Notes: generated by a model not told the origin, from the sequence alone. DNA of 64,000 bases from an uncultured Alphaproteobacteria bacterium (GCA_902522865.1 CABYXC010000003.1:33672-97671); one strand, 5' to 3'. Shown: positions 10,575 to 36,873, counted from the first letter of the stretch. Translations and numbers: made by a program.

Positions 10575-10575
10575 A

Positions 10576-12739: not shown

Positions 12740-12767
12740 ATAAAATAATTAGGAGACAAGGATAATT

Positions 12768-12800
12768 AAAAAAAGAAAAGCGGCAATATATAATTGCCGC
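12768..12800 (-). terminator. Intra-operon rho-independent terminator/attenuator after the binding-protein gene
   Basis: GCGGCAAT(12780-12787)/ATTGCCGC(12793-12800) stem with a 5-nt loop. On the minus strand it is followed by a U-rich tract (plus-strand A-run 12768-12779). A T7 run at 12801-12807 makes it formally bidirectional. Confidence 0.65.
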
Positions 12801-12825
12801 TTTTTTTATTATTTATTGAGTTAAA

Positions 12826-16567: not shown

Positions 16568-16574
16568 TAAAGAT

Positions 16575-21982: not shown

Positions 21983-22750
21983 TTATTTAGCTGTCCATCC
22001 TCCATCAATTACTAACGAAGAGCCAGTCATCATTGATGCGGCATCTGAAGCAAGATACACTACAGCACTAGCAATATCACTTTCTGTTGCTACTTTTCCT
22101 AAAGGTATGTTTTCAATTACAGATTTTTTAAAACTTTTATCTTTAAAAAATTTTTTGACCATTGGGGTTTCCACAAATGTAGGGCAAACGGAATTAACTC
22201 TGATGTTGTGCTTAGCCAAATCAATAGCCATCCCTTTGGTAAGACCTTCAACACCAAACTTAGTCATATTATAAACACTTCTAAGAGGAGCACCTACTTT
22301 ACCTAACTGAGAAGAAATATTTATTATTGATCCACCAATTTTTTTTCTATTTTTTGATTTAAGCATAACTTTTGTAGCTAATTGAGCAATATCGAATGAT
22401 GCTTTAATATTAAGATCAACCACTTCACTCATATCTTTTCTTTTAATTTTGGTGAAATATTCAGGTCTATTTGTGCCAGCATTATTTACTAATATGTCTA
22501 ATTTATTGATTTCAGAAAATATTTTTTTTATTTCTTTTAAATTAGTTACATCACACACATAGTAACTACATTTCTTTTTGAGTTTTTTAATTTTGCTTTG
22601 AATAATTAAAAGATCTTTCTCTGTACGACTAAGAATTATTACATTTGCGCCTGCTTCTGCTAATGCTATAGCACATGCTTTACCTATGCCTTTGCCTGAC
22701 CCTGTCACAAGAGCAGTCTTATTTTTTACATTAAAATTTTTTAGAAACAT
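21983..22750 (-). CDS. Short-chain dehydrogenase/reductase (SDR)
   Basis: 'TGSGKGIG' cofactor motif, 'NNAG', catalytic 'YNMTK'. Confidence 0.85.
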   Translation of the reverse strand: MFLKNFNVKNKTALVTGSGKGIGKACAIALAEAGANVIILSRTEKDLLIIQSKIKKLKKKCSYYVCDVTNLKEIKKIFSEINKLDILVNNAGTNRPEYFTKIKRKDMSEVVDLNIKASFDIAQLATKVMLKSKNRKKIGGSIINISSQLGKVGAPLRSVYNMTKFGVEGLTKGMAIDLAKHNIRVNSVCPTFVETPMVKKFFKDKSFKKSVIENIPLGKVATESDIASAVVYLASDAASMMTGSSLVIDGGWTAK

Positions 22751-22763
22751 TTGATCTGATTAT

Positions 22764-23423
22764 TTACAATGAAAAAATAGATTGATCTAATAAATTCATT
22801 TTTTTAATACACATTTGAAAACTATCTTCTAAATGGTAATCACCTGGGAACCCAATGCATTTAATTCCAGCGTTTACAGCAGAATTACTACTTTCTTCAG
22901 TATCCTCTATTGCAAGACAATCTTCTGGCTGTAAATTTAATTTATCTAATGTGACTTTGTATATTTCTGGATGTGGTTTTTCATTTTTAACAAATGATTT
23001 ATTACCAATGAATTCAAATTCTTCTTTTGAAATTTGACCCGAAAGACTTTCAAATACTGCATCGACATTATTTAAAGTTGTAGAAGTTGAGAAAGCAAGT
23101 TTAATATTATTATCTTTTGTATACTTAATTATTTCACCAACGCTCTTTCTTAATTTTTGTTTATTCTGAATAATGTATGAGCTAAAGATTTCTGTTTTTC
23201 TATTTCTAATTTGTGAAGCATTTACATTAGTATTATTTTTTTCAGCAAAATCTTCTACCCTTTTTGTCCCGCCAGATTTTTTTAACAAAATTTTATAATC
23301 TTGCTCATCCCAATACCAATCAAGTCCAGCTTCTTTAAAAGCTTCATTAAATGAGTTACGTTGAATGTTAGAAGATTCAATTAGTGTCCCGATAGATCCA
23401 AATATAAGTGCTTTATATTTCAT
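22764..23423 (-). CDS. HAD-superfamily (beta-phosphoglucomutase-like) protein with a degenerate motif I
   Basis: Motifs II-IV are recognisable ('FSTSTT', 'KPHPEIY', 'AIEDTEES'). Motif I reads 'LIFGSIGTL' instead of DxDGT; I confirmed this by retranslating 23380-23423. Confidence 0.6.
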   Translation of the reverse strand: MKYKALIFGSIGTLIESSNIQRNSFNEAFKEAGLDWYWDEQDYKILLKKSGGTKRVEDFAEKNNTNVNASQIRNRKTEIFSSYIIQNKQKLRKSVGEIIKYTKDNNIKLAFSTSTTLNNVDAVFESLSGQISKEEFEFIGNKSFVKNEKPHPEIYKVTLDKLNLQPEDCLAIEDTEESSNSAVNAGIKCIGFPGDYHLEDSFQMCIKKMNLLDQSIFSL

Positions 23424-23441
23424 AAGATTAGAAATTTATTA

Positions 23442-24323
23442 TTAACCTTTTACTGCTCCAGCAGTTAAACCACTTATTAATTGTCTTTGGAAAAACATGA
23501 TTATCATAAAAAGTGGTGCAGTTGCTGAAACAACACTTGAGACTGCCCACATATAATTTCCACTATGTTCAATTGTGCCCAAATAAGCATTAATTTTAGG
23601 AACCATAGTATAATTCTGCTGATTTAAAAGAAGTGAAGTAACTGTAAAATCATTATAGGCTAACATCATGCTGAATAAACCTGCGGTAACAACTCCAGGC
23701 CACATAACAGGCATTATAACAAAGCGAAACGCTTGAAAATATGAACAGCCATCAATTAGTGCACTTTCATCTAACTCTTTAGGAACTGTTTTAAAGAAGG
23801 AATAAAGTAACCATAATGTAAAGGGTTGATTGATTGCAACTAAAACAATTATGGTAGTTGGAAGTATGCCCCAAACATTCAATTGGAAGAAAGGAAACAG
23901 ATAACCAGAAACTAATGTAATGTGTGGCATCGCTCTAAAAATCAAGGCAGCTATTAAAATCCAAAAAGTATATTTATATGTCGATCGAGACAAGGCATAA
24001 GCACCCAATGTTCCTAAAAATAAAGAGATCGTAACAACTGAAACAGTGATAATAATTGTATTCATTGTTGCTTTCCAAAATTCACCTTCAGTCCAAGACT
24101 CTACATATGCCTTAACTGTAGAAGTATCTCCTGTTTCTATCAAAGTATTAACTCCTGTGACTGCAAACATCCAATCAGCTCTTGAGAAAAAGTCGGCTTT
24201 TACTTTAAATGATCCCCAAAAAGTCCATATAAAAGGAAACACAGAAATAATTAACCAAGCAAGAATAAAAAAACTATTTATTAAAATTAGTTGTTTTGAG
24301 TATCTATTAATTTTTGATTCCAT
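23442..24323 (-). CDS. Carbohydrate ABC transporter permease (MalG/UgpE-like)
   Basis: 6 TM segments with EAA loop 'ESALIDGCSYFQAFRFVIMP'. Confidence 0.8.
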   Translation of the reverse strand: MESKINRYSKQLILINSFFILAWLIISVFPFIWTFWGSFKVKADFFSRADWMFAVTGVNTLIETGDTSTVKAYVESWTEGEFWKATMNTIIITVSVVTISLFLGTLGAYALSRSTYKYTFWILIAALIFRAMPHITLVSGYLFPFFQLNVWGILPTTIIVLVAINQPFTLWLLYSFFKTVPKELDESALIDGCSYFQAFRFVIMPVMWPGVVTAGLFSMMLAYNDFTVTSLLLNQQNYTMVPKINAYLGTIEHSGNYMWAVSSVVSATAPLFMIIMFFQRQLISGLTAGAVKG

Positions 24324-24324
24324 A

Positions 24325-25353
24325 TTATCTTTCTGTCCTAAATTCTCTCCATGTTCTTATAAGTACTGGTGTTAATAGAATTGCTACACCAATAATAGTT
24401 AACATAGATGTTGCTCCTGCAGATCCAAATAACATTTTGTTTTCACTTCTTAAGTCATTATAAATCATCCAAGAAAGTGATTGAGCAACTCCTTCAGCAG
24501 CAAAACCGATTATTGGCTCAAGAACCCTAAAATTATCCATTAGACAAATTAATATAATAAATGTTGCTACCGGATAAAGATGTGGAATAACAATGTGTCT
24601 GACTCGTTCATATCTTGAGGCGCCATCTATGATCGCTGCCTCAATTGGATCTTGAGGAACAGTTTGTAATGCAGCATAAAAGACAACAAAAGCAAATGGT
24701 GTATTGTGCCAAATCCCATAAATAATCAGAGTAATCCAAGTCAATTGACTTGAGGACTTTAGTGATAGGTTTGGATCATCAAATAAGAATTGAATAAATG
24801 AACCTAATATTCCCTTAGCATCTATCATCCAAAATAAAACAAGAGATCCAATCAATGGTGTTACAATCATAGGCAGTATAACACCAAAAATGGTTGGGCC
24901 TTTTAAACTTTTTGTAATGGTGTTTACACTTAAAGCAACGATGAAACCTAAAACTACAACTGGTGGCGTAACTGCAAAACAAAATGTAAGTGTAAATAAA
25001 AGTGCTTTGTAAAAAGGTAAATTTAGTAAGGTATCCGTAAACTCAGCTATGGATGAGGAATTAGTCCAAGCCTCTTTAATTTCATCAAAAGCCAAATGGT
25101 TTCTATCGCCGTATGTTCCTAAACCATTGAATCTTCCAAGAGGTTGTTCTTCTTGTAATTTTGTTGTTGCTTCAATATCAACTTTTGTTTCTGTTTTGCA
25201 TCCAAATGGATCACATTTTTCTACTTCCATTAAAATTTGTTCAGGCTCAATGTGAAGAGATTGAAAAAAACTAGAAATAATTGGAAGGCCAATAAATAAT
25301 AGCATTGCCAATCCACTTGGAAAGAAGAACCAAAAAAATGTTCTGTGGGGCAT
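24325..25353 (-). CDS. Carbohydrate ABC transporter permease (MalF/UgpA-like)
   Basis: EAA loop 'EAAIIDGASRYERVRHIVIPHL' and a long first periplasmic loop. Confidence 0.8.
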   Translation of the reverse strand: MPHRTFFWFFFPSGLAMLLFIGLPIISSFFQSLHIEPEQILMEVEKCDPFGCKTETKVDIEATTKLQEEQPLGRFNGLGTYGDRNHLAFDEIKEAWTNSSSIAEFTDTLLNLPFYKALLFTLTFCFAVTPPVVVLGFIVALSVNTITKSLKGPTIFGVILPMIVTPLIGSLVLFWMIDAKGILGSFIQFLFDDPNLSLKSSSQLTWITLIIYGIWHNTPFAFVVFYAALQTVPQDPIEAAIIDGASRYERVRHIVIPHLYPVATFIILICLMDNFRVLEPIIGFAAEGVAQSLSWMIYNDLRSENKMLFGSAGATSMLTIIGVAILLTPVLIRTWREFRTER

Positions 25354-25365
25354 CTATTTCTTACT

Positions 25366-25397
25366 AAAAAAAAAGTGGAACATAATAATGTTCCACT
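25366..25397 (-). terminator. Intra-operon rho-independent terminator/attenuator after the binding-protein gene
   Basis: Perfect 10-bp stem AGTGGAACAT(25374-25383)/ATGTTCCACT(25388-25397) with a 4-nt loop. On the minus strand it is followed by a U9 run (plus-strand A9, 25366-25374). Confidence 0.7.
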
Positions 25398-25419
25398 TTA
25401 TCATAAATATTTATACGGT

Positions 25420-26655
25420 TTATAGAAATCCTTGCTCAGTAGCTTTTGCTACATAAGCAGCTTCTACATCCGCTAATGCTTTTTCAGCAGACTCATTTCC
25501 TTGAAGGAATTCAACAAGTTCTGTGCTCAAAGCACCATGTAATAGACTCATGTATGGTAAGCTTGGGTAAGGTGTTGCACCTCTATTAGCAGCGTCAACA
25601 ACTGGCCCTGCTGTATCTCCAGGCGAATAACCATCAATCAACCAAATTGTTGCATTTGGATTAGCATTTGCCATTTCTGTTGAAGTTGCTGCACCTAAAA
25701 GAGCTCTAAAAGATGCTTCTGCATTTTCATCAGAAGTGTTTGTTGCAATTCCAAATCCATCCCACCATAGAGTTGTTGCTGGCTTACTTCCACCACCTAC
25801 AGATGGAGAAGGAGCTAATCTAGTATCAGCTTTAATTGCTTGATCACCTTCGTCATCTAACAATGAAGCTGCACCTGAGTTCCAGATATGCATTAATGCT
25901 ACATTACCAGACTCCCATTCTTCTTTAACTGCATTTGTATCTTGAGTTAAGAAATCAGGGTTACTTACTTCGGTTAATCTTTTAAGCATATTAAGAGCAG
26001 CTACACCTTTAGCGTTATTTACACTAACTTCAGCTGTTCCAGCTTTAAAGAAATCACCTCCATGACCTAGGTACATGTTTACAAACTCTTGACCTAAGTT
26101 CCATCCAGATTTGAAAGCACCAGCATATGGGTTAGCCATTTTACCAGAAGCTTTAATTTTTTCTGCAGCCGCAATTACCTCTTCATATGTTGAAGGAACT
26201 GCGATACCTAAATCATTAAGAATACTTTCTCTGTACCAAAGATGTTGAGCATTAGCCATAAATGCTACTGCATAAATTTTACCATCAATCACGATTTTTT
26301 GATTGTCTTGTAATGCACTTCCGTATTTAGCAACTAAATCATCAAGTGGACGAATTAAGTTATCATTCATTAAAGTTGTAATTGAACCATTAGTAACAAG
26401 TTTAGCAGAGAATTCAGCTGGGTTAGCTGAAAGTGCTGCAACTTGTAATTTATTATGATCAACAGAATGTGTTACAGAAAAATCTGCATCAGGTCCTGCA
26501 CAACTTTTTACTTCATCCATGAAAATTCTGTATGTTGTAAATTCGTTTGCTAGAATCTTTATTGATCCATCTGTTACTCCACAAGGTGAGTGCCCACCGG
26601 CATATGCACTTGTGCTAACAAATGTGAACAATAGAGCTATTAATAGTTTTTTCAT
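25420..26655 (-). CDS. Carbohydrate-type ABC transporter substrate-binding protein (family 1), secreted
   Basis: Signal peptide 'MKKLLIALLFTFVSTSAYA'; 411 aa; higher GC and expression-type codon usage. Confidence 0.8.
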   Translation of the reverse strand: MKKLLIALLFTFVSTSAYAGGHSPCGVTDGSIKILANEFTTYRIFMDEVKSCAGPDADFSVTHSVDHNKLQVAALSANPAEFSAKLVTNGSITTLMNDNLIRPLDDLVAKYGSALQDNQKIVIDGKIYAVAFMANAQHLWYRESILNDLGIAVPSTYEEVIAAAEKIKASGKMANPYAGAFKSGWNLGQEFVNMYLGHGGDFFKAGTAEVSVNNAKGVAALNMLKRLTEVSNPDFLTQDTNAVKEEWESGNVALMHIWNSGAASLLDDEGDQAIKADTRLAPSPSVGGGSKPATTLWWDGFGIATNTSDENAEASFRALLGAATSTEMANANPNATIWLIDGYSPGDTAGPVVDAANRGATPYPSLPYMSLLHGALSTELVEFLQGNESAEKALADVEAAYVAKATEQGFL

Positions 26656-26677
26656 ATATTTCCCCTTATTAATAAAG

Positions 26678-26690
26678 TGTGAAATTCACA
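26678..26690. promoter_or_regulatory. Palindrome TGTGAA-A-TTCACA upstream of the binding-protein gene
   Basis: Perfect 6-1-6 palindrome, 23 nt upstream of the start codon at 26655. Confidence 0.4.
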
Positions 26691-26746
26691 TTTAAGTATA
26701 AATCCTTTATATTGGTATTAGAAAATAATGCAATAATATGAATTGA

Positions 26747-26764
26747 TATTCAAGATTTTGAATA
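26747..26764. promoter_or_regulatory. Candidate operator TATTCA-AGATTT-TGAATA
   Basis: Perfect 6-N6-6 palindrome, 20 nt upstream of the LacI-family gene start. An extra TGAAT half-site lies at 26739-26743. Confidence 0.5.
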
Positions 26765-26783
26765 TTGAAATGGGGGATAATTC

Positions 26784-27782
26784 ATGAGTTTTAAAAAGAC
26801 TGCGACATCACAGGACGTAGCAAAACTAGCAGGAGTATCCCAATCAGCTGTTTCTAGATGTTTTACAAAAGGTGCTAGCATTTCTAGTAGAACAAAATTG
26901 AGAGTCTTGGAAGCAGCTAGAAAATTAAAATATAAAGCACCTAATATATCTTCTAATTCAATATCTAATGACGATAGCGGATTAGTTGCTGTCATTTTAC
27001 CTTACGTTACAAGCAGATATTATCCAGAAGTTTTAATAGAGTTACATGAAGCACTTAGGAATGGGGGGTTTAGAATTTTATTAATTACAACTGATGATGG
27101 AGAAGAATTAGATGAAAAATTAATACAGCCATACTTAAAAGAAAAACTCATTGCAATAATATCCGCAACAAAACCCACTGATAAATTTGTCGAAGATTGC
27201 AATCAAAAAAGAATACAATTTATTGCTTATAATAGAAGTTGGAATATACCAACGATAAGTTCCGTTGCATGTGATCATCGTAACGGAGGAGAATTAGTTG
27301 CAGAATATTTTACAAAGAAAAATCATAAAAATATTGGCCTCATTGAAGGACCAAAAGGATCTTATGTTAGCGATGAGCGATGCAAAGGTTTTAAAAATTA
27401 TCTTAAAAATAATAAAAAAATTAAATTAAATATTGAAAAAGGTTTTTTTACTTATGAAGGTGGATATCAAGCAACTGAAAAAATTTTTAATAAAAACATA
27501 AGTGCAATATTTTGCGCTGACGACACAATGGCGTTTGGATGTTTAGATTATATTAAAAAAAATACTTCATTAAAAACACTTTCTCAATTAGAAATTATTG
27601 GTTATGACGATATATCAATGTCAGCTTGGGAATCATATAACCTTACAACTGTAAGACAACCTATTAGACAAATGTCAAAAATAGCAACTCAGTTAATAAA
27701 TGAATATATTAAAGATCCAGATTTTGAACCTATAAATCATATTGTACAGGGAAGACTTATAAAAAGAAAAACTACAAAATAA
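26784..27782 (+). CDS. LacI-family transcriptional regulator
   Basis: N-terminal HTH 'TSQDVAKLAGVSQSAVSRCF' plus a periplasmic-binding-protein-like sugar domain, 332 aa. Confidence 0.85.
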   Translation: MSFKKTATSQDVAKLAGVSQSAVSRCFTKGASISSRTKLRVLEAARKLKYKAPNISSNSISNDDSGLVAVILPYVTSRYYPEVLIELHEALRNGGFRILLITTDDGEELDEKLIQPYLKEKLIAIISATKPTDKFVEDCNQKRIQFIAYNRSWNIPTISSVACDHRNGGELVAEYFTKKNHKNIGLIEGPKGSYVSDERCKGFKNYLKNNKKIKLNIEKGFFTYEGGYQATEKIFNKNISAIFCADDTMAFGCLDYIKKNTSLKTLSQLEIIGYDDISMSAWESYNLTTVRQPIRQMSKIATQLINEYIKDPDFEPINHIVQGRLIKRKTTK

Positions 27783-27783
27783 T

Positions 27784-28203
27784 TTATTTAAATTTTAATC
27801 CCATTTGTTCGAAAACACCATGGTTATCTACCATAACATAATTATCTAAAAATTTTCCATCTTTAATGGTCCAAAAATCTGAAAATTGCATTTTTATAGA
27901 TTTGCCTGTTGGCTCTACTCCAAGATATGTTCCACTATGCGTGCCTGTTAAAAATCCCGTTGCACTAATCCACTCACCTTCTGCAACCACAATATCATTT
28001 TTTACATGATAATCTGGAAATGCTTCATAAAAAGGTTTTAGAACTTTATATTTAAAATTTTCTATACCATGGATATCACCAAAACCTGGAGGGCCGTGCC
28101 AGACCATATTATCATGCCAGTACTTGTGTTGTGCTTCTAGATCTTGAGCATTAAGTGCATCATACATATCAGCTAATAATTTTTTACTTTCATCTAAAGT
28201 CAT
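27784..28203 (-). CDS. NTF2-like/SnoaL-type protein ('predicted ester cyclase' type), single domain
   Basis: 139 aa. 'MYDALNAQDLE...W..NMVWHGPPGFG...FPDYH...GTH.G.YLG..PTGK' is the typical SnoaL-like pattern. Confidence 0.6.
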   Translation of the reverse strand: MTLDESKKLLADMYDALNAQDLEAQHKYWHDNMVWHGPPGFGDIHGIENFKYKVLKPFYEAFPDYHVKNDIVVAEGEWISATGFLTGTHSGTYLGVEPTGKSIKMQFSDFWTIKDGKFLDNYVMVDNHGVFEQMGLKFK

Positions 28204-29339
28204 TTTTTATCTCCTAAAATTTGCATTAGAATTGCAAGCTCATTAAAACCAGTCCACTCTTTAATAATTTTATTATTTTTAATTTCCCATTGAGTGATTC
28301 CCCACAAATACACTTCTCTATTAGATGGTTGGCCATATGAGCCATTCCCTTTATGCGTTCCTACTGCGCCCCAACGAACCGATACTAAGTAACCATCTTT
28401 TGTATTTCCCATCCAGTATAAATCTTCAATACTGAGTGCAAGATCAGGAAACGAAGCTAAAAGTGATATTATAAATTTTCTTAATTGCAAAACTCCTTTA
28501 AATTTACGACCAGTTGAACCTTCAAATTCTACCTTACTAGAGTATGCTTTATTTATTGCAGAAAAGTTTCGTCTATTCCAAATTGTATCATAAACTGCAT
28601 GAACAAACTCTCTTACATTTGTAATTTTATCTGGAATATCAAAACTAATTGGTTTTAATTTGGTAATATTTCTTGTTGGTTTAGAGTTTTTAAAATGAGG
28701 AGCATAGGGCCCTGCAATTCCCTCATGAACAAGTTGCTTGGCAACTTGATTTAAATCTAATCCGAGTTGTTTAATTAAACCTGCTGTATCGTAAACAACA
28801 TTTTCATAATAAATTTCATTATTTTTTGCTACACAATTTGCAATACAAAATAATCTTACTTTTTTACCAGTTGGTGTAGAAAATTTGCTAAATCCTGTAT
28901 TTGTTCCAGTAATAATTGTTCTATGAGAAGTATGAAAACTTGCATTTTGATCTCCTGCCCAAATAACTTCATCTGCAAATAATCGAATATCTGGAAAGGC
29001 GTTGTTTGTGTGTATTGTATCAGCAACTATTTTTTCAGATCCAGATTGTAAACCAAACTCATCCCAAACTCTGCAATCTTTACTGTAGGTGTCATAGATA
29101 TAACCAATATTTTTTTCTTCCCATATTTGATACGTAATCCTTACAATATAATCAATTATATTTTTATACTGATCCTCAAACCCCTTCATTGATTGATGTT
29201 TAAGTTTTTTTGGTTTTGGATTTAATGATTTAGCTGTTCCTCCACCCCCGTATGCTTTTAATGAAATATCATAACTCTTAGGCATATGATGATCTTGAAG
29301 AGCTTCTGGTCTTTTATCTGTAATTTTATTAAATTTCAT
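28200..29339 (-). CDS. Tandem NTF2-like/SnoaL-type protein (two domains), paralog of 31584..32576
   Basis: Shares 'MKGF..Q(Y/F)K...DYI..ITYQIWE' and 'TG.K(V/L)....IA.C' with the paralog. The paralog begins at the equivalent of internal Met51, so an alternative start at 29189 would give about 329 aa. Confidence 0.55.
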   Translation of the reverse strand: MKFNKITDKRPEALQDHHMPKSYDISLKAYGGGGTAKSLNPKPKKLKHQSMKGFEDQYKNIIDYIVRITYQIWEEKNIGYIYDTYSKDCRVWDEFGLQSGSEKIVADTIHTNNAFPDIRLFADEVIWAGDQNASFHTSHRTIITGTNTGFSKFSTPTGKKVRLFCIANCVAKNNEIYYENVVYDTAGLIKQLGLDLNQVAKQLVHEGIAGPYAPHFKNSKPTRNITKLKPISFDIPDKITNVREFVHAVYDTIWNRRNFSAINKAYSSKVEFEGSTGRKFKGVLQLRKFIISLLASFPDLALSIEDLYWMGNTKDGYLVSVRWGAVGTHKGNGSYGQPSNREVYLWGITQWEIKNNKIIKEWTGFNELAILMQILGDKK

Positions 29340-29373
29340 AATTTGTATTTATATTGAGATACATTTAAAAATA

Positions 29374-29391
29374 TTTCAAAGCAATGAAATT
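29374..29391. promoter_or_regulatory. Candidate operator variant ATTTCA-AAGCAA-TGAAAT
   Basis: Perfect 6-N6-6 palindrome, 35 nt upstream of the minus-strand start at 29339. Confidence 0.45.
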
Positions 29392-29393
29392 TT

Positions 29394-29411
29394 ATTCAAA
29401 AAAATGAATAT
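29394..29411. promoter_or_regulatory. Candidate operator TATTCA-AAAAAA-TGAATA
   Basis: Perfect 6-N6-6 palindrome, 36 nt upstream of the plus-strand start at 29447. Its centre is 20 bp from the neighbouring site. Confidence 0.5.
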
Positions 29412-29446
29412 TGTCTTTTTTAGTTTATTAATATAATCAAAATGAA

Positions 29447-30451
29447 ATGACTGATCTCCAAGCAGAAAAAAAATTAGTATTAGATTATTTCAATGAAATA
29501 GATAGTTGCAACATTGATTCATTATCTGAAGTGATATCCAAATACACATCAGAAGATTTTAGTATGAAATGCACACATCCGTTTAACGAATTAGGCAGTA
29601 TAGATCTTGTTGCTAATGATCTTTGGAAACCAATTAAAAATTCATTTTCACCTATACAACGTCGATTAGATATATTTTATGCTGGGATAAATTCACTAGA
29701 TAAAAATAAAGGGAAATGGATCTCCAGTATGGGTCATTTCATGGGTGTTTTCAATAAACCGTTTGTAGGTCTTAAACCAAATTATAAATCTATTTTATTA
29801 AGATTTGCTGAATTTTATAAAGTGGAGAATAATAAAATTACTGAAGGAGCGATTTTTTTAGATGTAATGAATTTAATGCAGCAACTAGGTCTTTCTATAA
29901 TTCCTGAATCTACAGGTCTTGTTTGTGTAACGCCAGGACCAATGAATCATAAAGGTCTAAAATTTGATATTTCTAATAAAAGTGAAAGTCAAAAAACATT
30001 AGATTTAATTCATAGAATGCGTGATCGACTTGTTAAAGGATCTAAAATGCAATCTTATAAAGAAGAATTAGAATTAGATTGGCATGATGACATGATTTGG
30101 TGGGGACCGGGAGGAATAGGAGCTTCATATACTATTGATGGTTATCAAAAAGGTCACACAAAACCATTTCAAGATGGCTTAGAGTTTGTTCGTTTCAATG
30201 GACACATACTTAGTAGCTCTGAAGATGATCTAGGTGGTTGGTTTGGTTGGCCAAATTTAATTATGAAACCTAAAGGAGAATATTTAGGATTAACAAATGC
30301 AAGTGATATTGAATCAGAAATGAGAGTTGTAGATTTATATCGAAGAGATGGAGATAGACTGGCCGAAAACTGGATCTTTATTGATCATTTACATTTTTTA
30401 AAAAAACTAGGAGTGGATCTTTTAGAAAGAGCAAAATTTTTAAATCAGTAA
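29447..30451 (+). CDS. Tandem NTF2-like/SnoaL-type protein, paralog of 33651..34748
   Basis: The C-terminal half ('DWHDDMIWWGPGGIG...ENWIFIDHLHFLKKLGVD') parallels the 139-aa protein and the C-half of 33651..34748. Confidence 0.5.
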   Translation: MTDLQAEKKLVLDYFNEIDSCNIDSLSEVISKYTSEDFSMKCTHPFNELGSIDLVANDLWKPIKNSFSPIQRRLDIFYAGINSLDKNKGKWISSMGHFMGVFNKPFVGLKPNYKSILLRFAEFYKVENNKITEGAIFLDVMNLMQQLGLSIIPESTGLVCVTPGPMNHKGLKFDISNKSESQKTLDLIHRMRDRLVKGSKMQSYKEELELDWHDDMIWWGPGGIGASYTIDGYQKGHTKPFQDGLEFVRFNGHILSSSEDDLGGWFGWPNLIMKPKGEYLGLTNASDIESEMRVVDLYRRDGDRLAENWIFIDHLHFLKKLGVDLLERAKFLNQ

Positions 30452-31579
30452 TTAGATAACTTTTGAGGCAAGTTTAGTGCCCTCAACTAATGCTTGGAGC
30501 TTTTCATAACAAATTTTTTCATCAATTTTTCCAAAACCAGCAAATGTACTAAAACCACAATCTGTCCCTGCCATTAATTGATCTTTTGGAATGACTGTAG
30601 AAAACTGAATTAATCTATCTGCAACAACTTCTGGATGTTCAACAAAATTAGAGGTTGAGTCGATTACACCAGGTACTAGGACTTTATCTTTTGGTAACTT
30701 TATATCTTGAAAAACTTTCCATTCATGTGCGTGCCTAGGATTAGAAGATTCAATGAGAAAGTATTTTACCTTTGATTTCAAAATTATAGGTAATATTTTC
30801 TCTAGAGCAATATCATGTGTGTGGGGTCCTTCATAATTGCCCCAACATATATGCATTCTAGTTTGCTCAACATCTACATTAGATAATGCTGAGTTTAGGC
30901 ATTCAATTTGCAGCTCTGCACGTTTAATAAACTCATCTTCAGATAAATTTTTAAAATTCATATGTCTTGCTAAAGCAAGGTCTGGGCAATCTAATTGAAC
31001 TTGGATATCTGATTTTGTTATTAGCTCATATTCTTTAGCCATAATATTAGATAATTTATCCAAATATTCATCTTCGGTACTATAAAATTTATTTGGCATA
31101 AAAACATTTATGACACCAGGTGATGCTGAGTTCATAAATGCATGTCGGTGATTAAGTTTATCAAGTGAATTTTTAAAATTATTTATATCGTGTAGAAGAG
31201 ACGTTTCATCTTTTACTTTTAATTCGTTTGTACAACATGGTCTGGTATAAGTTGGCGTACCACCACTTTTAGCAATCTTTTCTTTGTATTCTGGAAAATC
31301 ATCAAGATCAGCAGGTGCTCTTCTTTCGCTTTCACCTGAGAATCCATCAATTCTATCTTTAATGTAAGTAGCATAACTAATTTTACTCATCTCGCCATCA
31401 CTGACAAAATCAATTCCAACATCAAGTTGTTTCTTCACCACACTTTCGACGTTGTTTTTTAATACTTCATCAAAACTACTTTGACTGAAATTTTCACCTT
31501 TATCTTTTGCAAATAAAAATTCTGAAAGTTCTTTTGATCTAGGAAGGCTTCCAACATGTGTTGTCAAAATATTAGACAT
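30452..31579 (-). CDS. MetE-like protein (cobalamin-independent methionine synthase II family, Zn alkyl-transferase fold)
   Basis: 'TTHVGSLPRS' N-terminus; likely Zn ligands 'HICWGNYEGPH' and 'GTDCGFSTF'. Its stop directly abuts the convergent gene (30451/30452). Confidence 0.7.
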   Translation of the reverse strand: MSNILTTHVGSLPRSKELSEFLFAKDKGENFSQSSFDEVLKNNVESVVKKQLDVGIDFVSDGEMSKISYATYIKDRIDGFSGESERRAPADLDDFPEYKEKIAKSGGTPTYTRPCCTNELKVKDETSLLHDINNFKNSLDKLNHRHAFMNSASPGVINVFMPNKFYSTEDEYLDKLSNIMAKEYELITKSDIQVQLDCPDLALARHMNFKNLSEDEFIKRAELQIECLNSALSNVDVEQTRMHICWGNYEGPHTHDIALEKILPIILKSKVKYFLIESSNPRHAHEWKVFQDIKLPKDKVLVPGVIDSTSNFVEHPEVVADRLIQFSTVIPKDQLMAGTDCGFSTFAGFGKIDEKICYEKLQALVEGTKLASKVI

Positions 31580-31583
31580 TAAA

Positions 31584-32576
31584 TTAACCTGTTTTTAATA
31601 AAATCTGTTTCCAGATCATGGTTTCATCATAGAGAACCCATTCATTTTTAATACCTCTTGCTCCAAATTCTACATGATTAATACCCATTATATAAATTTT
31701 CGAATTAGAGGCTTTCCCAAAAAGACCATCTCCTTCATGTTTACCTACTATAGACCATCGTACTGAGGCTTTTTTAGGTTCATATTTTTCTTCAGTAAAA
31801 GCAATGTGCTCGACTGAGAACAATGCGTTAGGAAAAGCATTTCTTAATTGTTTCCAAAATTTTATTACCTCATCTCTACCATAGTGAGTTTTTCCCCCTG
31901 GTTGAAATTGCTGTATGGCTCTGTCATAACTATCATTTATTGTTTTCTGTAAATTGATGTTCATAATAGAGGTTAAGATATTTGCATATAATTCTCCAAT
32001 GTTACCAGATGCTAATGTAGGAGATTTATAAATTGATTTAACAGGTGTATTTTCATCAAAGGGTTTACTAGCTTTTTCAGGACCACCCTCGTCTTTAATA
32101 AGATTGCTTGCAAATTTCTTGGGGTCAATTCCAATTTGTCTCACAATTGCTCCTTGATCTCTCACAAGCCACTCATCATAAACTTGATTATTCATACATG
32201 CACAATCAGCAATAGTGCGGTAATACAGTTTTTTTCCTGTCGCTTTCCCATAAATCCCATCAACAGAATGAGTAGAGGTTGATAAAATGCGGTGTGATGA
32301 AAAATATCCCTCTTCATCACTTCCTGTCCAAATTACATCTTCACCTAAAAGTGTTCTGTCGGGAAATAGTTTTTTACTAGCATAAGTACTTTCTATTACC
32401 GGGTCTGCACCATAAATTACTCCAGATGGAGATCTTGTAGGTGTTGGAAGATTTACGTTTGGGGTATCAGCATAATAATCTCTTATTGCTTCAACATCGT
32501 TGTTTTCCCAAATTTGATATGTGATCTTTAAAATATAATCAGGAAAATCTTTGAATTGTGCATCAAATCCTTTCAT
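31584..32576 (-). CDS. Tandem NTF2-like/SnoaL-type protein, paralog of 28200..29339
   Basis: 330 aa with 'DYILKITYQIWENN' and a second domain ending 'NEWVLYDETMIWKQI'. Confidence 0.55.
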   Translation of the reverse strand: MKGFDAQFKDFPDYILKITYQIWENNDVEAIRDYYADTPNVNLPTPTRSPSGVIYGADPVIESTYASKKLFPDRTLLGEDVIWTGSDEEGYFSSHRILSTSTHSVDGIYGKATGKKLYYRTIADCACMNNQVYDEWLVRDQGAIVRQIGIDPKKFASNLIKDEGGPEKASKPFDENTPVKSIYKSPTLASGNIGELYANILTSIMNINLQKTINDSYDRAIQQFQPGGKTHYGRDEVIKFWKQLRNAFPNALFSVEHIAFTEEKYEPKKASVRWSIVGKHEGDGLFGKASNSKIYIMGINHVEFGARGIKNEWVLYDETMIWKQILLKTG

Positions 32577-32587
32577 ATAATTAATAT

Positions 32588-33559
32588 TTAATTAGTTTGT
32601 CGTATTATAAATAAATTACCATCATGATTACTTATCTGTCTTATTGAACGAAGTGAATTTTTTGGAACAGAAAAAGTATCTTTTTCTTTAATTACAACTT
32701 TGTCTCCATCACAATCTATTTCCCATTCACCAGATAAACAATGATACACTTCTGATTTCTCCAGTTTGTATTCATGTATATGAGCACTCTTGCCGTTGAG
32801 AAGTGAAAGGCTAAAACCTGTTGCATGCGGTATATTAGGGGTAAAAGATTTATCATGAATTTGAAACTGATCAATGTAGTTGATAATTTTATTAGATTGA
32901 TAGTGATCATCATCGACAAAATATTTATCTTTATCATTAAATCGAATAACAAACTTTTCTATGTCTTCTGAAGAGTAATGATCGAAACTCTCTAATTCAT
33001 TATCTTCTAGTGGCTGAATAATTTTAGTTTCATCTGTTATTTTCTGTTTCTGTGTGTCGATTAAAGAATTATCATTCATTAATACCATGCCAGATTCTTT
33101 TGCATCTTTTAAAAGTTTAGGTGTCCAAGTAATAACACCTGGATCATTTTCACCTAACACAACAAACATTAAAGCTTCTTCATCACTTACATTTTGAAAA
33201 CCTCTGAACATGTTTGTGGGAAAAGAAGCGATGTCACCTTTTTTTAGTATTACTTCTCCTTCTGTGCCATCAACACCCCAATAAAAACGCCAGGCACCTG
33301 AGTGAATTATAAAAACTTCTGCTGTTGTGTGACTATGTAATCCAGAGCCATTCATCGGCGCAGCACTGACAGCACCAATATTAAAGCCATGTTCTTCAGC
33401 TATTTTAACATTTTGTTTAGCATCTTCACTTACACCAGGTCCTATAACTGAATAATTTTTCCTATCTTGATGACCTTTTAGTTTTCCCTCAACAAATGGT
33501 ATATTACTAGGAATAAGTTCATCGAATTTGGCTAATCTAGATGTAATATTAATTGACAT
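32588..33559 (-). CDS. Bicupin protein (two cupin barrels)
   Basis: The N-domain 'GSGLHSHTTAEVFIIHSG' fits G-x5-HxH-x3-E. The C-domain has 'HIHEYKLEKSEVYHCLSGEW'. Confidence 0.55.
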   Translation of the reverse strand: MSINITSRLAKFDELIPSNIPFVEGKLKGHQDRKNYSVIGPGVSEDAKQNVKIAEEHGFNIGAVSAAPMNGSGLHSHTTAEVFIIHSGAWRFYWGVDGTEGEVILKKGDIASFPTNMFRGFQNVSDEEALMFVVLGENDPGVITWTPKLLKDAKESGMVLMNDNSLIDTQKQKITDETKIIQPLEDNELESFDHYSSEDIEKFVIRFNDKDKYFVDDDHYQSNKIINYIDQFQIHDKSFTPNIPHATGFSLSLLNGKSAHIHEYKLEKSEVYHCLSGEWEIDCDGDKVVIKEKDTFSVPKNSLRSIRQISNHDGNLFIIRQTN

Positions 33560-33574
33560 ATTGTAATGATCTTT

Positions 33575-33593
33575 TATTCATTTTTTTTGAATA
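33575..33593. promoter_or_regulatory. Candidate operator variant TATTCA-TTTTTTT-TGAATA (N7 spacer)
   Basis: Perfect arms, 16 nt upstream of the bicupin start at 33559. Confidence 0.4.
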
Positions 33594-33594
33594 T

Positions 33595-33612
33595 TATTCA
33601 AAATAATGAATA
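33595..33612. promoter_or_regulatory. Candidate operator TATTCA-AAATAA-TGAATA
   Basis: Perfect 6-N6-6 palindrome, 39 nt upstream of the start at 33651. Its centre is about 19.5 bp from the neighbouring site. Confidence 0.5.
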
Positions 33613-33650
33613 AATCAATTATTATTTAACAATAGTGTTATTAAATTATT

Positions 33651-34748
33651 ATGGCAAATAAAATACAAAACTTTGATACAGGTGAGAAAGATAACTCAAA
33701 CATAATTCATTTAGATCTTGATCCAAAGATAAATATTGAAAACAAAATATATTTTAAAAATTTATTAAAAAAAATTACCGAGTGCTCTTTAGATAATTTA
33801 GAAGAAAATCTTGAAAATTTATATCATGTAGATGCTGAGTTTAATGGATTTCATCCAATTAATGAAATTAAAGGAATTGAAGAAATAAAAAATAAATATT
33901 TAATACCTCTAAAGAAGGCATTCCCCGATCTCGAAAGAAGAAATAATCTAGTTATTGGAGGAGCATTTAGAGATAAAGTTTTTGTTTCATTTATTAGTCA
34001 TTTAACTGGAACTTTTAAAAATGAGTGGTTGGGCGTAAAGCCGACTAACAAAACAATTTATCTTAGAACATGTGAAGCGCATCAGATTACAAATAATAAA
34101 ATAATAAAATCCTATACATTAATTGATACTGTAGATTTTATCCGTCAGGCTGGATATTGGCCTATAAATAAATCTCTTGGGGTAGAAGGGATGTGGCCTA
34201 GTCCAATCACAGGTGATGGAGAAAATAATCAAAATTTAGATAAGGAACTGTCTCTTCGATCTTTGAATCAAGATTTAACCATGCAAAGAAGTTTAAATAT
34301 TAAACCCGAGACTGAGCCAGGTCTATCAAAAGATCAAATAAGGGAGAAATTAATTAATCATCCTCAACAAGATTATTGGCATCCAAAAATGATGTGGTAT
34401 GGGCCAAGTGGTATAGGTACAGCTAGAGGTTTAGATGGTTTTATTGATCATCATCAACTCCCATTTAGACTTACATTCAAGGACAGAGATTATTGGAAAA
34501 TCGGTCATTATATTGAAATTGGAGATGGAAATTATTCTATGACTGGTGGTTGGCATAGTATTCAGTGTGTTCATGGATCAAGTGATTGGCTAGGATATAA
34601 ACCTACTCAAAAAAAAATAACAATGAGAGTCATGGATTTTTATTTACATCATGAAGGGTTAATTAGAGAAAATTGGGTTCCAATCGATATAGCACACATA
34701 TTAGATCAAATAGGCATTGATATCTTTAAATTAATTCATAAAAAATAA
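33651..34748 (+). CDS. Tandem NTF2-like/SnoaL-type protein, paralog of 29447..30451
   Basis: 365 aa. The C-half '[15 protein letters not shown]...[18 protein letters not shown]' parallels the paralog. Confidence 0.5.
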
Positions 34749-34750
34749 TT

Positions 34751-36070
34751 ATGGCAATTGAATATTTAAAAAAAGGTTTAGATGAAAAACAAAGAATTGA
34801 AGATAATGATAAAGTAAAAAAAATTGTTGAGGAAACGTTAAGTAAAATTGAATCAGAAGGTGATAAATATGTTAGAGAGTTATCTCAAAAATTTGATAAC
34901 TATTCTCCAGATAGTTTTAGATTAAGTGAAGATCAAATAAATCAATTAATGAGTGAAGTCTCTGATCATGACAAAGAAGATATTAAATTTGCTCAAAAAC
35001 AAGTGCGATCATTTGCGGAAGCACAACTTAAAACTTTAAGTGAATTAGAAGTAGAAACGCATCCAGGCGTTATTCTTGGTCATAAGAATATACCAGTGCA
35101 AGCAGTTGGATGTTATGTACCTGCTGGAAAATTCCCAATGGTAGCTTCTGCTCATATGTCAGTTGTTACTGCCTCTGTTGCTGGGGTTCCAAGAATTGTT
35201 GCTACTACGCCACCTTTTAAAGGTAAGCCAAATCCAGCTGTCGTTACAGCAATGAAAATGGGCGGTGCTCACGAAATTTATGTTTTGGGAGGAATGCAAG
35301 GAGTTGGTGCTATGGCTATAGGTACAGAAACTATTAAACCTGTAGATATGCTTGTTGGACCTGGCAATGCATTTGTTGCTGAAGCAAAAAGACAATTGTA
35401 TGGCAAAGTTGGTATCGATTTATTTGCTGGTCCAACTGAAACAATGGTTATTGCAGATGAAACTGTTGATGGTGAAATATGTGCAACAGACTTATTAGGA
35501 CAAGCCGAACATGGATATAATTCTCCTGCTGTGATGATAACAAACTCAAGAAAACTTGCAGAAGAAACATTTAAAGAAATTGATAGAATTTTAGAAATTT
35601 TACCTACTAAAGAAACAGCAAGTACAAGCTGGAGAGATTATGGAGAAATAATTTTATGTGATACCTATGAGGAGATGTTATCTAAAGCAAATGAAATAGC
35701 TTCAGAGCATGTTCAAGTTATGACAAAAAAAGATGATTGGTTTTTAGAAAAAATGACATCTTATGGTGCTTTATTTTTGGGTGCTAGAACTAATGTTGCT
35801 AATGGTGATAAAGTTATAGGCACTAACCATACTCTTCCTACTAAAAAAGCTGGAAGATATACTGGTGGTTTGTGGGTTGGTAAGTTCATTAAAACCCACA
35901 CTTATCAAAAGATTACAACCGATGAAGCAGCTACACTTATTGGAGAATATGGATCTAGACTTTCACACCTTGAAGGATTTATTGGTCACGCTGAACAATG
36001 TAACGTTAGAGTGAGAAGATATGGGAAAAAAAATGTTGGATATGGAAAACCAGCAGGAGAAAAAATTTAG
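34751..36070 (+). CDS. Histidinol-dehydrogenase-family NAD-dependent dehydrogenase; candidate sulfopropanediol 3-dehydrogenase (HpsN-like) rather than housekeeping HisD
   Basis: HisD-family motifs '[29 protein letters not shown]' and 'LLGQAEHG'. It has '[15 protein letters not shown]' where HisD has, from memory, a YVPGG..YPSS-type motif. It sits in a non-his context, 2 nt after an NTF2-like gene. Confidence 0.6.
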
Positions 36071-36071: not shown

Positions 36072-36467
36072 TTATTTTAATTCCCCTTTAACTCTCATTT
36101 CATTTCTAATTTTTGTTGCCGAGATATCATGTATTTCTTTTCCTAAATCATGTTCTGTAAATGAATAACCAACTCCTCTTCCATAAGAAATATCAATAAT
36201 GTTTGGAACTTTAACAACTACATATTCTTTTCCATCAGTAAAACCATGTTGAGCTAAACCTTCATTAATTTTTGCTTTTACTTCTTCAAATTGAAATGGA
36301 TTGTCAGCTTGACCTTCTACACCTGCATCTACACCTCCCACGTCACGATACATAATACATACCTGACCTGTTTTCTGAAGTGCTCTTTTAAATAATTCTG
36401 TATGTCCGTCATGCCATGGTTGCCATCTACCTAACATTTGTACTGTTGGTTTTTTCCAATCAAACAT
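36072..36467 (-). CDS. Small nucleotidyltransferase-fold protein (cytidylyl/adenylyl-transferase-like, HxGH motif)
   Basis: 131 aa. 'GRWQPWHDGHTELFKRAL' matches the (T/H)xGH signature, and there is a C-terminal 'ISATKIR' motif. Confidence 0.5.
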   Translation of the reverse strand: MFDWKKPTVQMLGRWQPWHDGHTELFKRALQKTGQVCIMYRDVGGVDAGVEGQADNPFQFEEVKAKINEGLAQHGFTDGKEYVVVKVPNIIDISYGRGVGYSFTEHDLGKEIHDISATKIRNEMRVKGELK

Positions 36468-36873
36468 TTTTAATCTCCTTTGCTAGATTTTCTATTTCTT
36501 CATCTAATAAAAATTTAGTTATTTTAATGTCAGTTTTATTTGGTTGTTCAAACATTTTATTTGTATCTTCAAACCTACCTTCTTTAATAGTATCCAGCCA
36601 GATAACAAAATCAGGCTCAAAAGCTTCTCTTGCTTTTTCAGTTGGTGCTACGAAGTCACAAATTACCCATCTTCCATTTTGTTTTTCGAAATCGGCAAAT
36701 GTTTTCATTCTATTGGCTTGTCGTATTCTACCTTCCATCGTAAAATCCCAATCGTTTGCTGACTTCCTGACTACATCTGCGTTATACCAAGCACAATTAT
36801 CAATTACTTTAATAAGCCTTTCAGCTAACCAAGTTTTGCCAGCACCAGGAAGACCACAAATAAGTATTTTCAT
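36460..36873 (-). CDS. Short P-loop kinase, adenylyl-sulfate (APS) kinase-like
   Basis: 137 aa. Walker A 'GLPGAGKT'; 'YNADVVRKSANDWDFTMEGRIRQANRM...VICDFVAPT' aligns by eye to the CysC core 'LDGDNVR..L..DLGFS..DR.ENIRR...VI..FISP'. 8-nt overlap (ATGTTTGA) with the downstream gene. Confidence 0.45.
   Translation of the reverse strand: MKILICGLPGAGKTWLAERLIKVIDNCAWYNADVVRKSANDWDFTMEGRIRQANRMKTFADFEKQNGRWVICDFVAPTEKAREAFEPDFVIWLDTIKEGRFEDTNKMFEQPNKTDIKITKFLLDEEIENLAKEIKNV

Follow-up and report, generated by a model that had tools for sequence, protein, structure and literature searches.

Genomes of SAR11, the most abundant bacteria in the ocean, are streamlined. What could a closely packed group of paralogous SnoaL-type genes be doing in one of them? 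We addressed this question for a 64,000-nucleotide stretch of DNA from an uncultured Alphaproteobacteria bacterium (GCA_902522865.1 CABYXC010000003.1:33672-97671; "the window"). An original prediction, made from the sequence alone, had marked positions 27784-36070 as nine NTF2/SnoaL-like domains together with MetE-like, bicupin and HisD-family enzymes, a candidate catabolic system. We found that this cluster is part of a functional unit of about 15 genes and about 14 kb (21983-36070, Table 1). Comparative evidence argues strongly that all its operons would form one regulon under a LacI-family protein. A single inducible system for importing and converting a metabolite is, in our judgement, a highly probable reading. 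It would be a catabolic regulon built around unassigned NTF2-fold enzymes; no described pathway matches it, and the route is probably an undescribed one.

Translation of the open reading frames (ORFs) returned the eight predicted genes at exactly the coordinates first given, and they do form one group. The boundaries, however, had been drawn too narrowly: the genes at 21983-27782, encoding a CUT1-type ATP-binding cassette (ABC) importer, a LacI regulator, an SDR and a HAD protein, belong to the same unit as the SnoaL genes. Pelagibacterales had rightly been named as the related group. The window proteins are 97-100% identical to those of tropical surface-ocean SAR11 single-cell genomes (AG-xxx SAGs, Pelagibacteraceae), and the cluster proteins were also found on an NCBI Pelagibacteraceae contig.

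Regulon, operators and conservation in SAR11

The palindrome TATTCA-N5-8-TGAATA occurs four times in the window, against 0.18 occurrences expected, and all four copies lie in the cluster's three divergent intergenic regions. A palindrome common to two divergent promoter regions had been predicted; this was borne out, the enlarged unit having three such regions. The operator takes the form TATTCA-N6/7-TGAATA and is 18-19 bp long. Facing the divergent regions are the operons SBP-permease-permease-HAD-SDR (SBP, periplasmic solute-binding protein), S379-S139, S334, bicupin-S330-MetE-like and S365-HisD-like, and the LacI gene is a transcription unit of its own at the first region.

For comparison we retrieved 80 loci with a profile of the S379 family and compared them with the window proteins by tblastn; 71 of them were SAR11-type. 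Every SAR11 locus that carries the LacI gene had the operator at these three positions; its half-sites did not vary, whereas its spacers did. No match to it was detected in any LacI-less SAR11 locus or in any non-SAR11 locus, and over the 71 SAR11 loci the presence or absence of the LacI gene and of the operator coincided fully. Because the operator covaries with the gene, we infer that LacI332 binds the TATTCA-N6/7-TGAATA sites and controls a single regulon. Hexamers resembling a -35 element (TTCAAA) lie within the operator half-sites. A scan for sigma-70-like promoters was not enriched (36 sites compared with 54 in shuffled sequences), so these hexamers and the promoter positions can be taken as suggestive at most. 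Roseobacters have an operator unlike that of SAR11, yet the same regulatory layout: their divergent S379/S334 promoter region carries the palindrome GCATACGTATGC beside a LacI-family gene (L091 7395-7410 and 7549-7562; L092 9838-9853), with a second copy that reads GCATACATATGC.

The full 11-gene block HisD-S365-bicupin-S330-MetE-S334-S379-S139-SBP-permease-permease was present, in the same order and orientation, in 61 of the 71 SAR11 loci; the other ten are all interrupted by contig ends. The neighbourhood was thus conserved in 61 of 61 SAR11 loci of sufficient length, and partially in other Proteobacteria. The lowest identities among the complete loci ranged from 45% (HisD-like protein) to 83% (permease 2). 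The SDR gene adjoins the cluster in 59 of the 61, either after the permeases, as in the window, or after the HisD gene, and the HAD gene, found in 48, is always adjacent to it. The window has an SBP_bac_1 protein and two BPD_transp_1 permeases and lacks a MalK-type ABC ATPase. In six related SAR11 loci such an ATPase is encoded inside an S365-HisD-ATPase-SDR-HAD operon, so that the dehydrogenase arm is physically tied to the importer.

Lineage-specific accessory genes were also seen inside the cluster (L044-L065 and others; for example L053 7072-7773, L051 1507-2565 and L044 8122-8814). An RraA-type aldolase (PF03737) lies between S330 and MetE in 26 SAR11 loci, and an alpha/beta hydrolase is found in two; both are absent from the window. 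In eight loci (L032, L037-L040, L042, L070, L072) a sixth SnoaL-type gene, 31-34% identical to S365, follows the SDR gene and precedes an EamA gene.

Table 1. Genes and putative operators of the unit, in window coordinates
Feature	Positions	Strand	Description and basis
SDR	21983..22750	-	SDR-family dehydrogenase (glucose-1-dehydrogenase / gluconate-5-dehydrogenase-like), last gene of importer operon; adh_short_C2, E 6e-60
HAD	22764..23423	-	HAD hydrolase, beta-phosphoglucomutase / hexitol-phosphatase type; Pfam HAD_2, E 7e-20
Permease 2	23442..24323	-	CUT1 type; Pfam BPD_transp_1
Permease 1	24325..25353	-	CUT1 type; ORF, syntenic with SBP and permease 2 in all loci
SBP	25420..26655	-	Periplasmic solute-binding protein with signal peptide; Pfam SBP_bac_1, E 3e-19
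Operator O1	26747..26764		TATTCAAGATTTTGAATA; between SBP operon and LacI gene
LacI332	26784..27782	+	LacI-family regulator, putative repressor; Pfam LacI helix-turn-helix and Peripla_BP_1/3/4
S139	27784..28203	-	Single-domain SnoaL-like; Pfam SnoaL, 88 bits, E 5.5e-25
S379	28200..29339	-	Two-domain SnoaL-like; 86 bits, two stretches; overlaps S139 by 4 nt
Operator O2	29393..29410		TATTCAAAAAAATGAATA; between S379 and S334
S334	29447..30451	+	Two-domain SnoaL-like; 48 bits
MetE375	30452..31579	-	Core-MetE-like zinc enzyme, catalytic domain only; Pfam Meth_synt_2, E 9e-14
S330	31584..32576	-	Two-domain SnoaL-like, S379 paralogue, SAR11 loci only; 48 bits, two stretches
Bicupin	32588..33559	-	Pfam Cupin_2, two stretches, E 1e-16; H-x-H-x3-E in N-terminal domain
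Operators O3 and O4	33575..33612		Tandem (O3 33575-33593, O4 33595-33612); between bicupin and S365
S365	33651..34748	+	Two-domain SnoaL-like, S334 paralogue; 65 bits, two stretches
HisD439	34751..36070	+	HisD-family, HpsN-clade NAD/Zn dehydrogenase, loop G-K-F-P-M; PF00815, 447 bits

SnoaL proteins and their partners

All five S proteins scored above the gathering cut-offs (48-88 bits; cut-offs 27-28 bits) of the Pfam families SnoaL (PF07366) and/or SnoaL_2 (PF12680). The predicted count of nine NTF2/SnoaL-like domains in five genes (27784-34748) was confirmed by Pfam, paralogue alignment and fold search taken together. All-against-all BLASTP supported both proposed paralogue pairs, S379/S330 (31% identity over 331 aa, E 3e-52) and S334/S365 (27% over 327 aa, E 1e-38), next to the single-domain S139. 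It also aligned the C-terminal half of S334, missed by Pfam, to S139 (E 2e-9). The motifs DYI..ITYQIWE, W.GP.GIG and ENW..ID, by which the families had first been recognised, are readable in the translations. No further SnoaL-like ORF was found in the 64-kb window by tblastn with the five proteins.

AlphaFold2 models of S379 (pLDDT 87, pTM 0.88) and S334 (pLDDT 90, pTM 0.90) each consist of two alpha+beta cone domains, and S330 and S365 align end to end with them. In Foldseek searches of the PDB, S379 matched SnoaL-like cyclases and hydroxylases (E 3e-7, TM 0.7-0.8), and S334 matched the tandem-NTF2 epoxide hydrolases Lsd19 and MonBI-MonBII over its full length (E 6e-11). The closest solved relative of S139 was a "predicted ester cyclase" (8ysb, E 1.5e-15); its match to SnoaL itself (1sjw) was weak and confined to residues 72-135 (E 0.005). 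By Pfam profiles and by structure and fold searches, then, the proteins are NTF2/SnoaL-like. The SnoaL fold is best known from antibiotic biosynthesis, and the chemistry of NTF2 folds covers enolisation or isomerisation, dehydration or elimination, and the opening of epoxides or esters. Since a polyketide synthase (PKS) context is absent here, the Pfam name "polyketide cyclase" is a label of fold and not of function.

S379 has a conserved 50-aa N-terminal extension, and its family, with 56 invariant columns, is small: 157 clusters at 50% identity (E<=1e-30) among 1.84e9 representatives. S139 has about 50 invariant residues and is 55-62% identical to homologues from Rhodobacterales, Hoeflea and Gammaproteobacteria. 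Because S139 is so strongly conserved across classes, the S proteins are likely enzymes with defined active sites rather than fillers. A signal peptide was not detected in any of them.

Homologues of S379 at about 60% identity were found in Rhodobacterales, Hoeflea, Rhizobiaceae, Immundisolibacterales, Gammaproteobacteria, Albidovulum, Shimia sediminis and Ruegeria hyattellae. At these non-SAR11 loci the S379 homologue lies beside an SBP_bac_1/two-permease importer, an S139 homologue and one or two proteins of S334/S365 type; the exception is a Geminicoccales locus (L084), where the S379 homologue alone was found. Permease 2, 83-100% identical among SAR11 loci, is 42-47% identical in the non-SAR11 modules, and homologues of permease 1 elsewhere are called BPD_transp_1. 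The isolates Shimia sediminis and Ruegeria hyattellae have a LacI-family gene next to the module, and the Hoeflea and Rhizobiaceae loci have one at 28-29% identity. In Roseobacters a counterpart of S365 (28-30% identical) lies beside the S334 homologue; as both are carried there, the S334/S365 duplication predates SAR11.

The ancestral module thus consists of the importer with S139, S379, S334 and S365, which together have seven NTF2 domains. SAR11 added the bicupin, the MetE-like enzyme, the SDR, the HAD protein and S330, the last being the sole SAR11-specific extra SnoaL copy. The HisD gene, like the MetE and cupin genes, lies outside this evolutionary core. Shimia does have a HisD-family gene two genes away from the module; the 100 N-terminal residues that precede the end of its contig share 54% identity with the window protein. 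Sulfatases flank the SnoaL module in Ruegeria hyattellae (L092) and, weakly, in the Geminicoccales metagenome-assembled genome (L084), and a GMC gene 38% identical to that of the window lies downstream of the module in a Rhodobacterales one (L005/L080).

The HisD-family assignment first proposed for the last gene proved right over its full length (PF00815). Among solved structures HisD439 was closest to CpHpsN (8v35; 400 bits, E 1e-118), followed by RpHpsN (361 bits), and the best HisD reached 260 bits (E 3e-76). HpsN is the sulfopropanediol-3-dehydrogenase of the hpsRKLMNOP cluster for 2,3-dihydroxypropane-1-sulfonate (DHPS) in Roseobacters and Cupriavidus (PMC11382572, PMC11131964, PMC4334477). 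The roles of its residues have been described, including a diagnostic loop G-R-Y-A/S-H in which His126 binds the sulfonate (PMC11382572). Aligned to 8v35, HisD439 conserves the Gln/His/Asp/His zinc ligands and the Glu-His catalytic pair. The second sulfonate contact, Lys353 (G-D-K), is kept in all loci scored, whereas HisD has G-D-Y. HisD439 is therefore an HpsN-clade enzyme with an altered recognition loop (G-K-F-P-M), presumably oxidising a primary alcohol to the acid in a four-electron reaction, and oxidation of DHPS is plausible. It passes the TIGR00069 domain model (433 bits), which explains public labels of "histidinol dehydrogenase". A housekeeping histidinol dehydrogenase was rejected: the protein falls in the HpsN clade, its loop is not G-S-A-P-L, and there is no his context, its neighbours being S365, a nucleotidyltransferase-like gene and an adenosine 5'-phosphosulfate (APS)-kinase-like gene. 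At the same position, L035, L036, L061 and L068 have a HisD-family gene that amounts to a xenologous or paralogous replacement in an otherwise conserved cluster.

The zinc-type MetE-like protein was recognised correctly: the H-x-C / E / C ligands of MetE375 (HICWGNY, FLIESS, TDCGF) match the same positions of 1ypx and 3rpd. The protein has 375 aa and consists of Meth_synt_2 only, without an N-terminal Meth_synt_1; all NCBIfam methionine-synthase models stay far under their cut-offs (best 107 bits, cut-off 406). A search for homologues returned close SAR11 sequences only (77-100% identity). In the bicupin the metal motif is retained, as predicted, with two Cupin_2 stretches and H-S-H-T-T-A-E in the N-terminal domain. 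We also considered an EaCoMT-like function of MetE375 in epoxide or coenzyme M chemistry, a bicupin that cleaves aromatic rings, the salvage of methylthioribose, the breakdown of phosphonates, and a route in which glucosylglycerol is oxidised to glucosylglycerate; none of these found support.

The PDB matches of the SBP were weak throughout (trehalose/maltose-binding protein, 2e-11; the sulfoquinovose (SQ)-glycerol binder SmoF, 6e-7; the glucose binder SAR11_0769, 4e-5). We rejected an identification with SAR11_0769 of the Nature 2024 SAR11 SBP screen (E 4e-5 to 8hqq), and that screen could not be linked to our SBP. The SDR scored 209 bits with the NCBIfam glucose 1-dehydrogenase subfamily (cut-off 215). 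Against the PDB it (SDR255) gave generic FabG and sugar-dehydrogenase matches only, and an assignment as HpsO was not possible. The HAD protein matched TIGR02009 under its cut-off (E 5e-22).

Substrate, chemistry and competing explanations

Our preferred explanation, to which we give an even chance, is that the unit couples a LacI-controlled CUT1 importer to SnoaL-catalysed conversion of a polar, sugar-like, possibly sulfonated phytoplankton metabolite. LacI would repress the operons until the imported metabolite itself appeared as inducer. The CUT1 importer would take in this polar, sugar-like compound of phytoplankton or algae, and the cytoplasmic SnoaL proteins would carry out cofactor-free acid-base steps on it, for which the candidates are opening of a ring or of a lactone or ester, isomerisation between keto and enol forms, and dehydration or beta-elimination. 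In SAR11 the redox and finishing steps may be supplied by the SDR, the HpsN-like dehydrogenase, the bicupin (possibly an aldose-ketose isomerase), the zinc thiol-alkyltransferase-like protein and the sugar-phosphatase-like HAD, to which some lineages might add an RraA-type pyruvate aldolase. The product of the HpsN-like enzyme would be a 2-hydroxy acid, our best guess being sulfolactate, which could be fed to the neighbouring 2-hydroxyacid dehydrogenase and on through ComDE, Xsc and Pta.

We regard an organosulfonate related to DHPS or sulfoquinovose as the most likely substrate class, with a confidence that comes close to even and does not exceed it. In the window genome the regulon lies within a large island of sulfonate and sugar genes. 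Xsc (1026 bits, cut-off 620) and Pta are present, both subunits of sulfopyruvate decarboxylase (ComD and ComE) score over their cut-offs, and the window also encodes an alanine dehydrogenase (Ald) and an AptA-type (taurine-type) omega-transaminase. The island further includes a D-2-hydroxyacid dehydrogenase, a PehA-like sulfatase and a GMC oxidoreductase. With the hydroxyacid dehydrogenase, ComDE, Xsc and Pta, the full route from sulfolactate via sulfopyruvate and sulfoacetaldehyde to acetyl-CoA and sulfite is encoded around the cluster. A second arrangement in SAR11 has APS reductase (AprAB) directly next to the cluster. Because other lineages have APS reductase or sugar genes as neighbours, and modules outside SAR11 occur in sugar-transport contexts, the sulfonate link is lineage-dependent, and what the surroundings say of it is suggestive. 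The organosulfonate idea put forward at the outset therefore fits the surroundings in the window (Xsc, ComDE, Pta) and not those in every lineage; we keep it as a working hypothesis.

Any specific reaction scheme is much less secure, and we think each one unlikely to be right as drawn. A scheme like the sulfo-Entner-Doudoroff (sulfo-ED) pathway is conceivable, running from the SDR through lactone or dehydration steps and an RraA aldolase to sulfolactaldehyde and sulfolactate. Of the sulfo-ED set of SQ dehydrogenase, SGL lactonase, IlvD/Edd-type SG dehydratase, KDSG aldolase and sulfolactaldehyde dehydrogenase of aldehyde dehydrogenase (ALDH) type, the cluster has only an SDR lacking a specific assignment; neither a dehydratase nor an aldolase or ALDH turned up when it was scanned with Pfam and NCBIfam. 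Also improbable is the proposal that the NTF2/SnoaL proteins catalyse a new cofactor-independent conversion of a major phytoplankton sulfonate or sulfosugar, which might be an enediolate isomerisation, a sulfite beta-elimination or a new variant of sulfoglycolysis. If true, SAR11 and some Roseobacters would gain a route that is missing from current models of the ocean sulfur cycle.

Several observations count against a sulfonated substrate and the route as outlined. The HpsN-diagnostic loop reads G-K-F-P-M in 59 loci in total, the window included, and in L035, L036, L061 and L068 the HisD-family protein is only 45-47% identical and has G-R-Y-N-N or G-R-N-N-Y. For the one SAR11 "HpsN" with published kinetics, possibly a protein other than HisD439, the Km for R-DHPS is 106 mM. 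The known SAR11 binder of DHPS and isethionate is a protein of the tripartite ATP-independent periplasmic (TRAP) type, other than the cluster SBP, whose similarity to SmoF is weak and not its best match. The HAD and MetE-like proteins have no role in the proposed route. Near the non-SAR11 modules no consistent sulfonate genes were seen, and in a LacI-less SAR11 lineage the genes directly downstream encode GH13, S6PP-like HAD and kinase proteins, a context of sugar or compatible-solute metabolism.

The same architecture might instead serve a non-sulfonated carbohydrate, polyol, sugar acid or glycoside, for instance a cyanobacterial or algal compatible solute, the sulfonate island being coincidental. 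We consider this the strongest competitor, although on balance an unlikely one. LacI regulators, CUT1 importers, HADs of beta-phosphoglucomutase type and SDRs resembling glucose 1-dehydrogenase are typical of sugar systems, the sulfonate-binding His of HpsN is missing, and the neighbours of the modules outside SAR11 include sugar transporters, an FGGY kinase and MalK ATPases. The RraA-type aldolase of 26 loci likewise points to a 2-keto-4-hydroxy or 2-keto-3-deoxy acid as intermediate, as known from sugar-acid routes of the non-phosphorylative kind. However, HpsN is clearly the solved enzyme nearest to the dehydrogenase, which keeps the sulfonate-contacting Lys. In two independent SAR11 arrangements the cluster has sulfonate or sulfite genes as neighbours, Xsc/Pta/ComDE in the first and AprAB in the second, and the regulon contains no glycoside hydrolase, sugar kinase or canonical isomerase.

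Scavenging of sulfur or methyl groups through the MetE-like enzyme is decidedly improbable. Here a methylated compound or thioether would be imported and its alkyl group transferred to or from homocysteine, giving methionine in a host unable to reduce sulfate. The zinc ligands of MetE375 are kept, its V-G-S, D-G-E and Q-x-D positions are presumably those that bind homocysteine in MetE structures, the more hydrophobic G-K-F-P-M loop could suit a thioether better than a sulfonate, and a second core-MetE gene and sulfur genes are nearby. MetE375 is found in no non-SAR11 module, however, and so cannot define the core function; moreover, a methyl donor, corrinoid or folate partner is not evident, and all methionine-synthase models are far under their cut-offs.

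An aromatic polyketide biosynthesis cluster, as the Pfam name "SnoaL-like polyketide cyclase" and the polyketide cyclases and hydroxylases among the nearest solved structures might suggest, was rejected as scarcely credible for want of a PKS context: no PKS, acyl carrier protein, ketoreductase-cyclase set or tailoring gene lies within 20 kb on each side (42 kb annotated), the genes are co-operonic with an SBP-dependent importer under a LacI repressor, and S139 matches SnoaL only at E 0.005. Equally remote is the idea that the genes form no functional unit and that paralogues gathered by chance in a variable island of the genome; flanks do differ between SAR11 lineages, but 61/61 synteny across deep SAR11 divergence, an operator that is shared and covaries with the regulator, and a core kept across classes contradict it, and it too was rejected.

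The preferred explanation, an inducible importer with SnoaL-based catabolism, would mean that about 14 kb are retained for one regulated system despite SAR11 streamlining. Clusters at 90% identity hold about 550-2,300 public sequences per cluster protein, and the exact SBP sequence was found in 978 contigs. Given this abundance, the substrate is likely to be quantitatively relevant in marine dissolved organic matter. Catabolism of DHPS, the nearest analogue, is an established currency of carbon and sulfur cycling in the ocean. As the core module is present in the cultivable Shimia sediminis and Ruegeria hyattellae, the question can be put to genetics and ligand screening without a SAR11 culture. 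The proteins carry no public names other than "ester cyclase", "hypothetical", "mannose-6-phosphate isomerase-like cupin", "histidinol dehydrogenase" and "sulfopropanediol 3-dehydrogenase". The view that no characterised pathway has this gene set held, no matching pathway or paper being found in the literature searched. Searches for SnoaL, ester cyclase or polyketide cyclase in SAR11 or Pelagibacter, and for sulfoquinovose with NTF2/SnoaL, gave nothing relevant, and the cluster genes go unmentioned in recent papers on the SAR11 pangenome and habitats and in reviews on SQ.

Other genes around the unit are worth recording. The window opens inside an ORF whose last 172 aa match the SftI sulfoquinovose isomerase model NF048012 (E 7e-44), with a score density far short of that of an equivalog. 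Next come genes for three GFO/IDH/MocA oxidoreductases, a D-2-hydroxyacid dehydrogenase, a PfkB kinase, an aldose-1-epimerase, an EamA transporter and ComD/ComE, so that positions 1-8587 resemble a SAR11 gene cluster for catabolism of a sulfosugar type, a capacity that is not ascribed to SAR11 in a 2026 review on the cycling of SQ in aquatic systems. Adjoining these sugar and sulfonate genes, 8606-14880 encode an ABC importer of Opp/Dpp type, made up of two ATPases, two permeases and an SBP_bac_5 protein that is unusually long (684 aa). At 15032-17624 a PehA-like sulfatase/phosphonate-monoester hydrolase gene (411 bits, cut-off 900) overlaps by 44 nt the second core-MetE-like gene, which has a GTG start and, with 220 bits to PRK04326, is better conserved than MetE375.

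Downstream of the unit, genes for a nucleotidyltransferase-like protein (131 aa) and an APS-kinase-like protein (137 aa) at 36072-36873 form a conserved pair that directly adjoins the HisD-like gene of several SAR11 lineages; L090 (2396-3284) has the pair next to AprAB, and it may be an accessory for handling sulfite or APS. A GMC oxidoreductase of the choline-dehydrogenase subfamily (38697-40301; 572 bits, cut-off 605) lies directly beside Xsc and could be an isethionate- or choline-type dehydrogenase. In L053 (14988-20918), of the LacI-less SAR11 lineage, the importer operon is followed by genes for a PRK-family kinase, a Hydrolase_3/S6PP-like phosphatase, an unassigned 403-aa protein, a GH13 alpha-amylase-family enzyme and an unassigned 423-aa protein, a set that resembles glucosylglycerate- or sucrose-type compatible-solute metabolism.

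Relation to known systems

The closest described system is the LacI-regulated hps cluster for DHPS. Both have a LacI-family regulator (HpsR in the Roseobacter cluster), an SBP-dependent importer and a HisD-fold Zn/NAD dehydrogenase. CpHpsN and RpHpsN align end to end with the window protein, an SDR is present, like HpsO, and the downstream Xsc route is encoded nearby in the window. In contrast to the hps cluster, the importer of the window is an ABC CUT1 system and not a TRAP transporter, the diagnostic loop differs and there is no HpsP of the medium-chain dehydrogenase/reductase type. The five SnoaL proteins, the bicupin and the MetE-like enzyme are without counterpart in described DHPS clusters. 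The stepwise logic of sulfo-ED sulfoglycolysis could also be mapped onto the unit, which has a CUT1 importer as in SQ and SQ-glycerol systems. However, the IlvD/Edd dehydratase, the class I aldolase of 2-keto-3-deoxy-6-phosphogluconate (KDPG) type and the ALDH-type sulfolactaldehyde dehydrogenase are missing, and the RraA aldolase is not in the window.

For individual proteins, MetE375 shares with core-MetE, folate-independent synthases (PRK04326-type, YxjG/YxjH-like, 1ypx, 3rpd) a single Meth_synt_2 barrel of about 375 aa and the same zinc ligands, but stays at 107 bits against a cut-off of 406 and is embedded in a catabolic-looking regulon. With the SnoaL/AknH/DnrD cyclases and SnoaL2/AclR hydroxylases the S proteins have the Pfam family (PF07366) and the alpha+beta cone fold in common. 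Unlike those enzymes, to which they are remote in sequence (S139 against 1sjw, E 0.005), they are encoded outside any polyketide context and co-operonically with a nutrient importer, and four of the five are tandem two-domain fusions. Lsd19 and MonBI-MonBII of polyether biosynthesis are the sole solved proteins that match both domains of S334 (about 330 aligned columns). They are only 8-13% identical to it, orient their domains differently (root-mean-square deviation 16-18 Å) and are biosynthetic rather than catabolic, but they show that fused NTF2 pairs can each hold an active site, the two acting in sequence.

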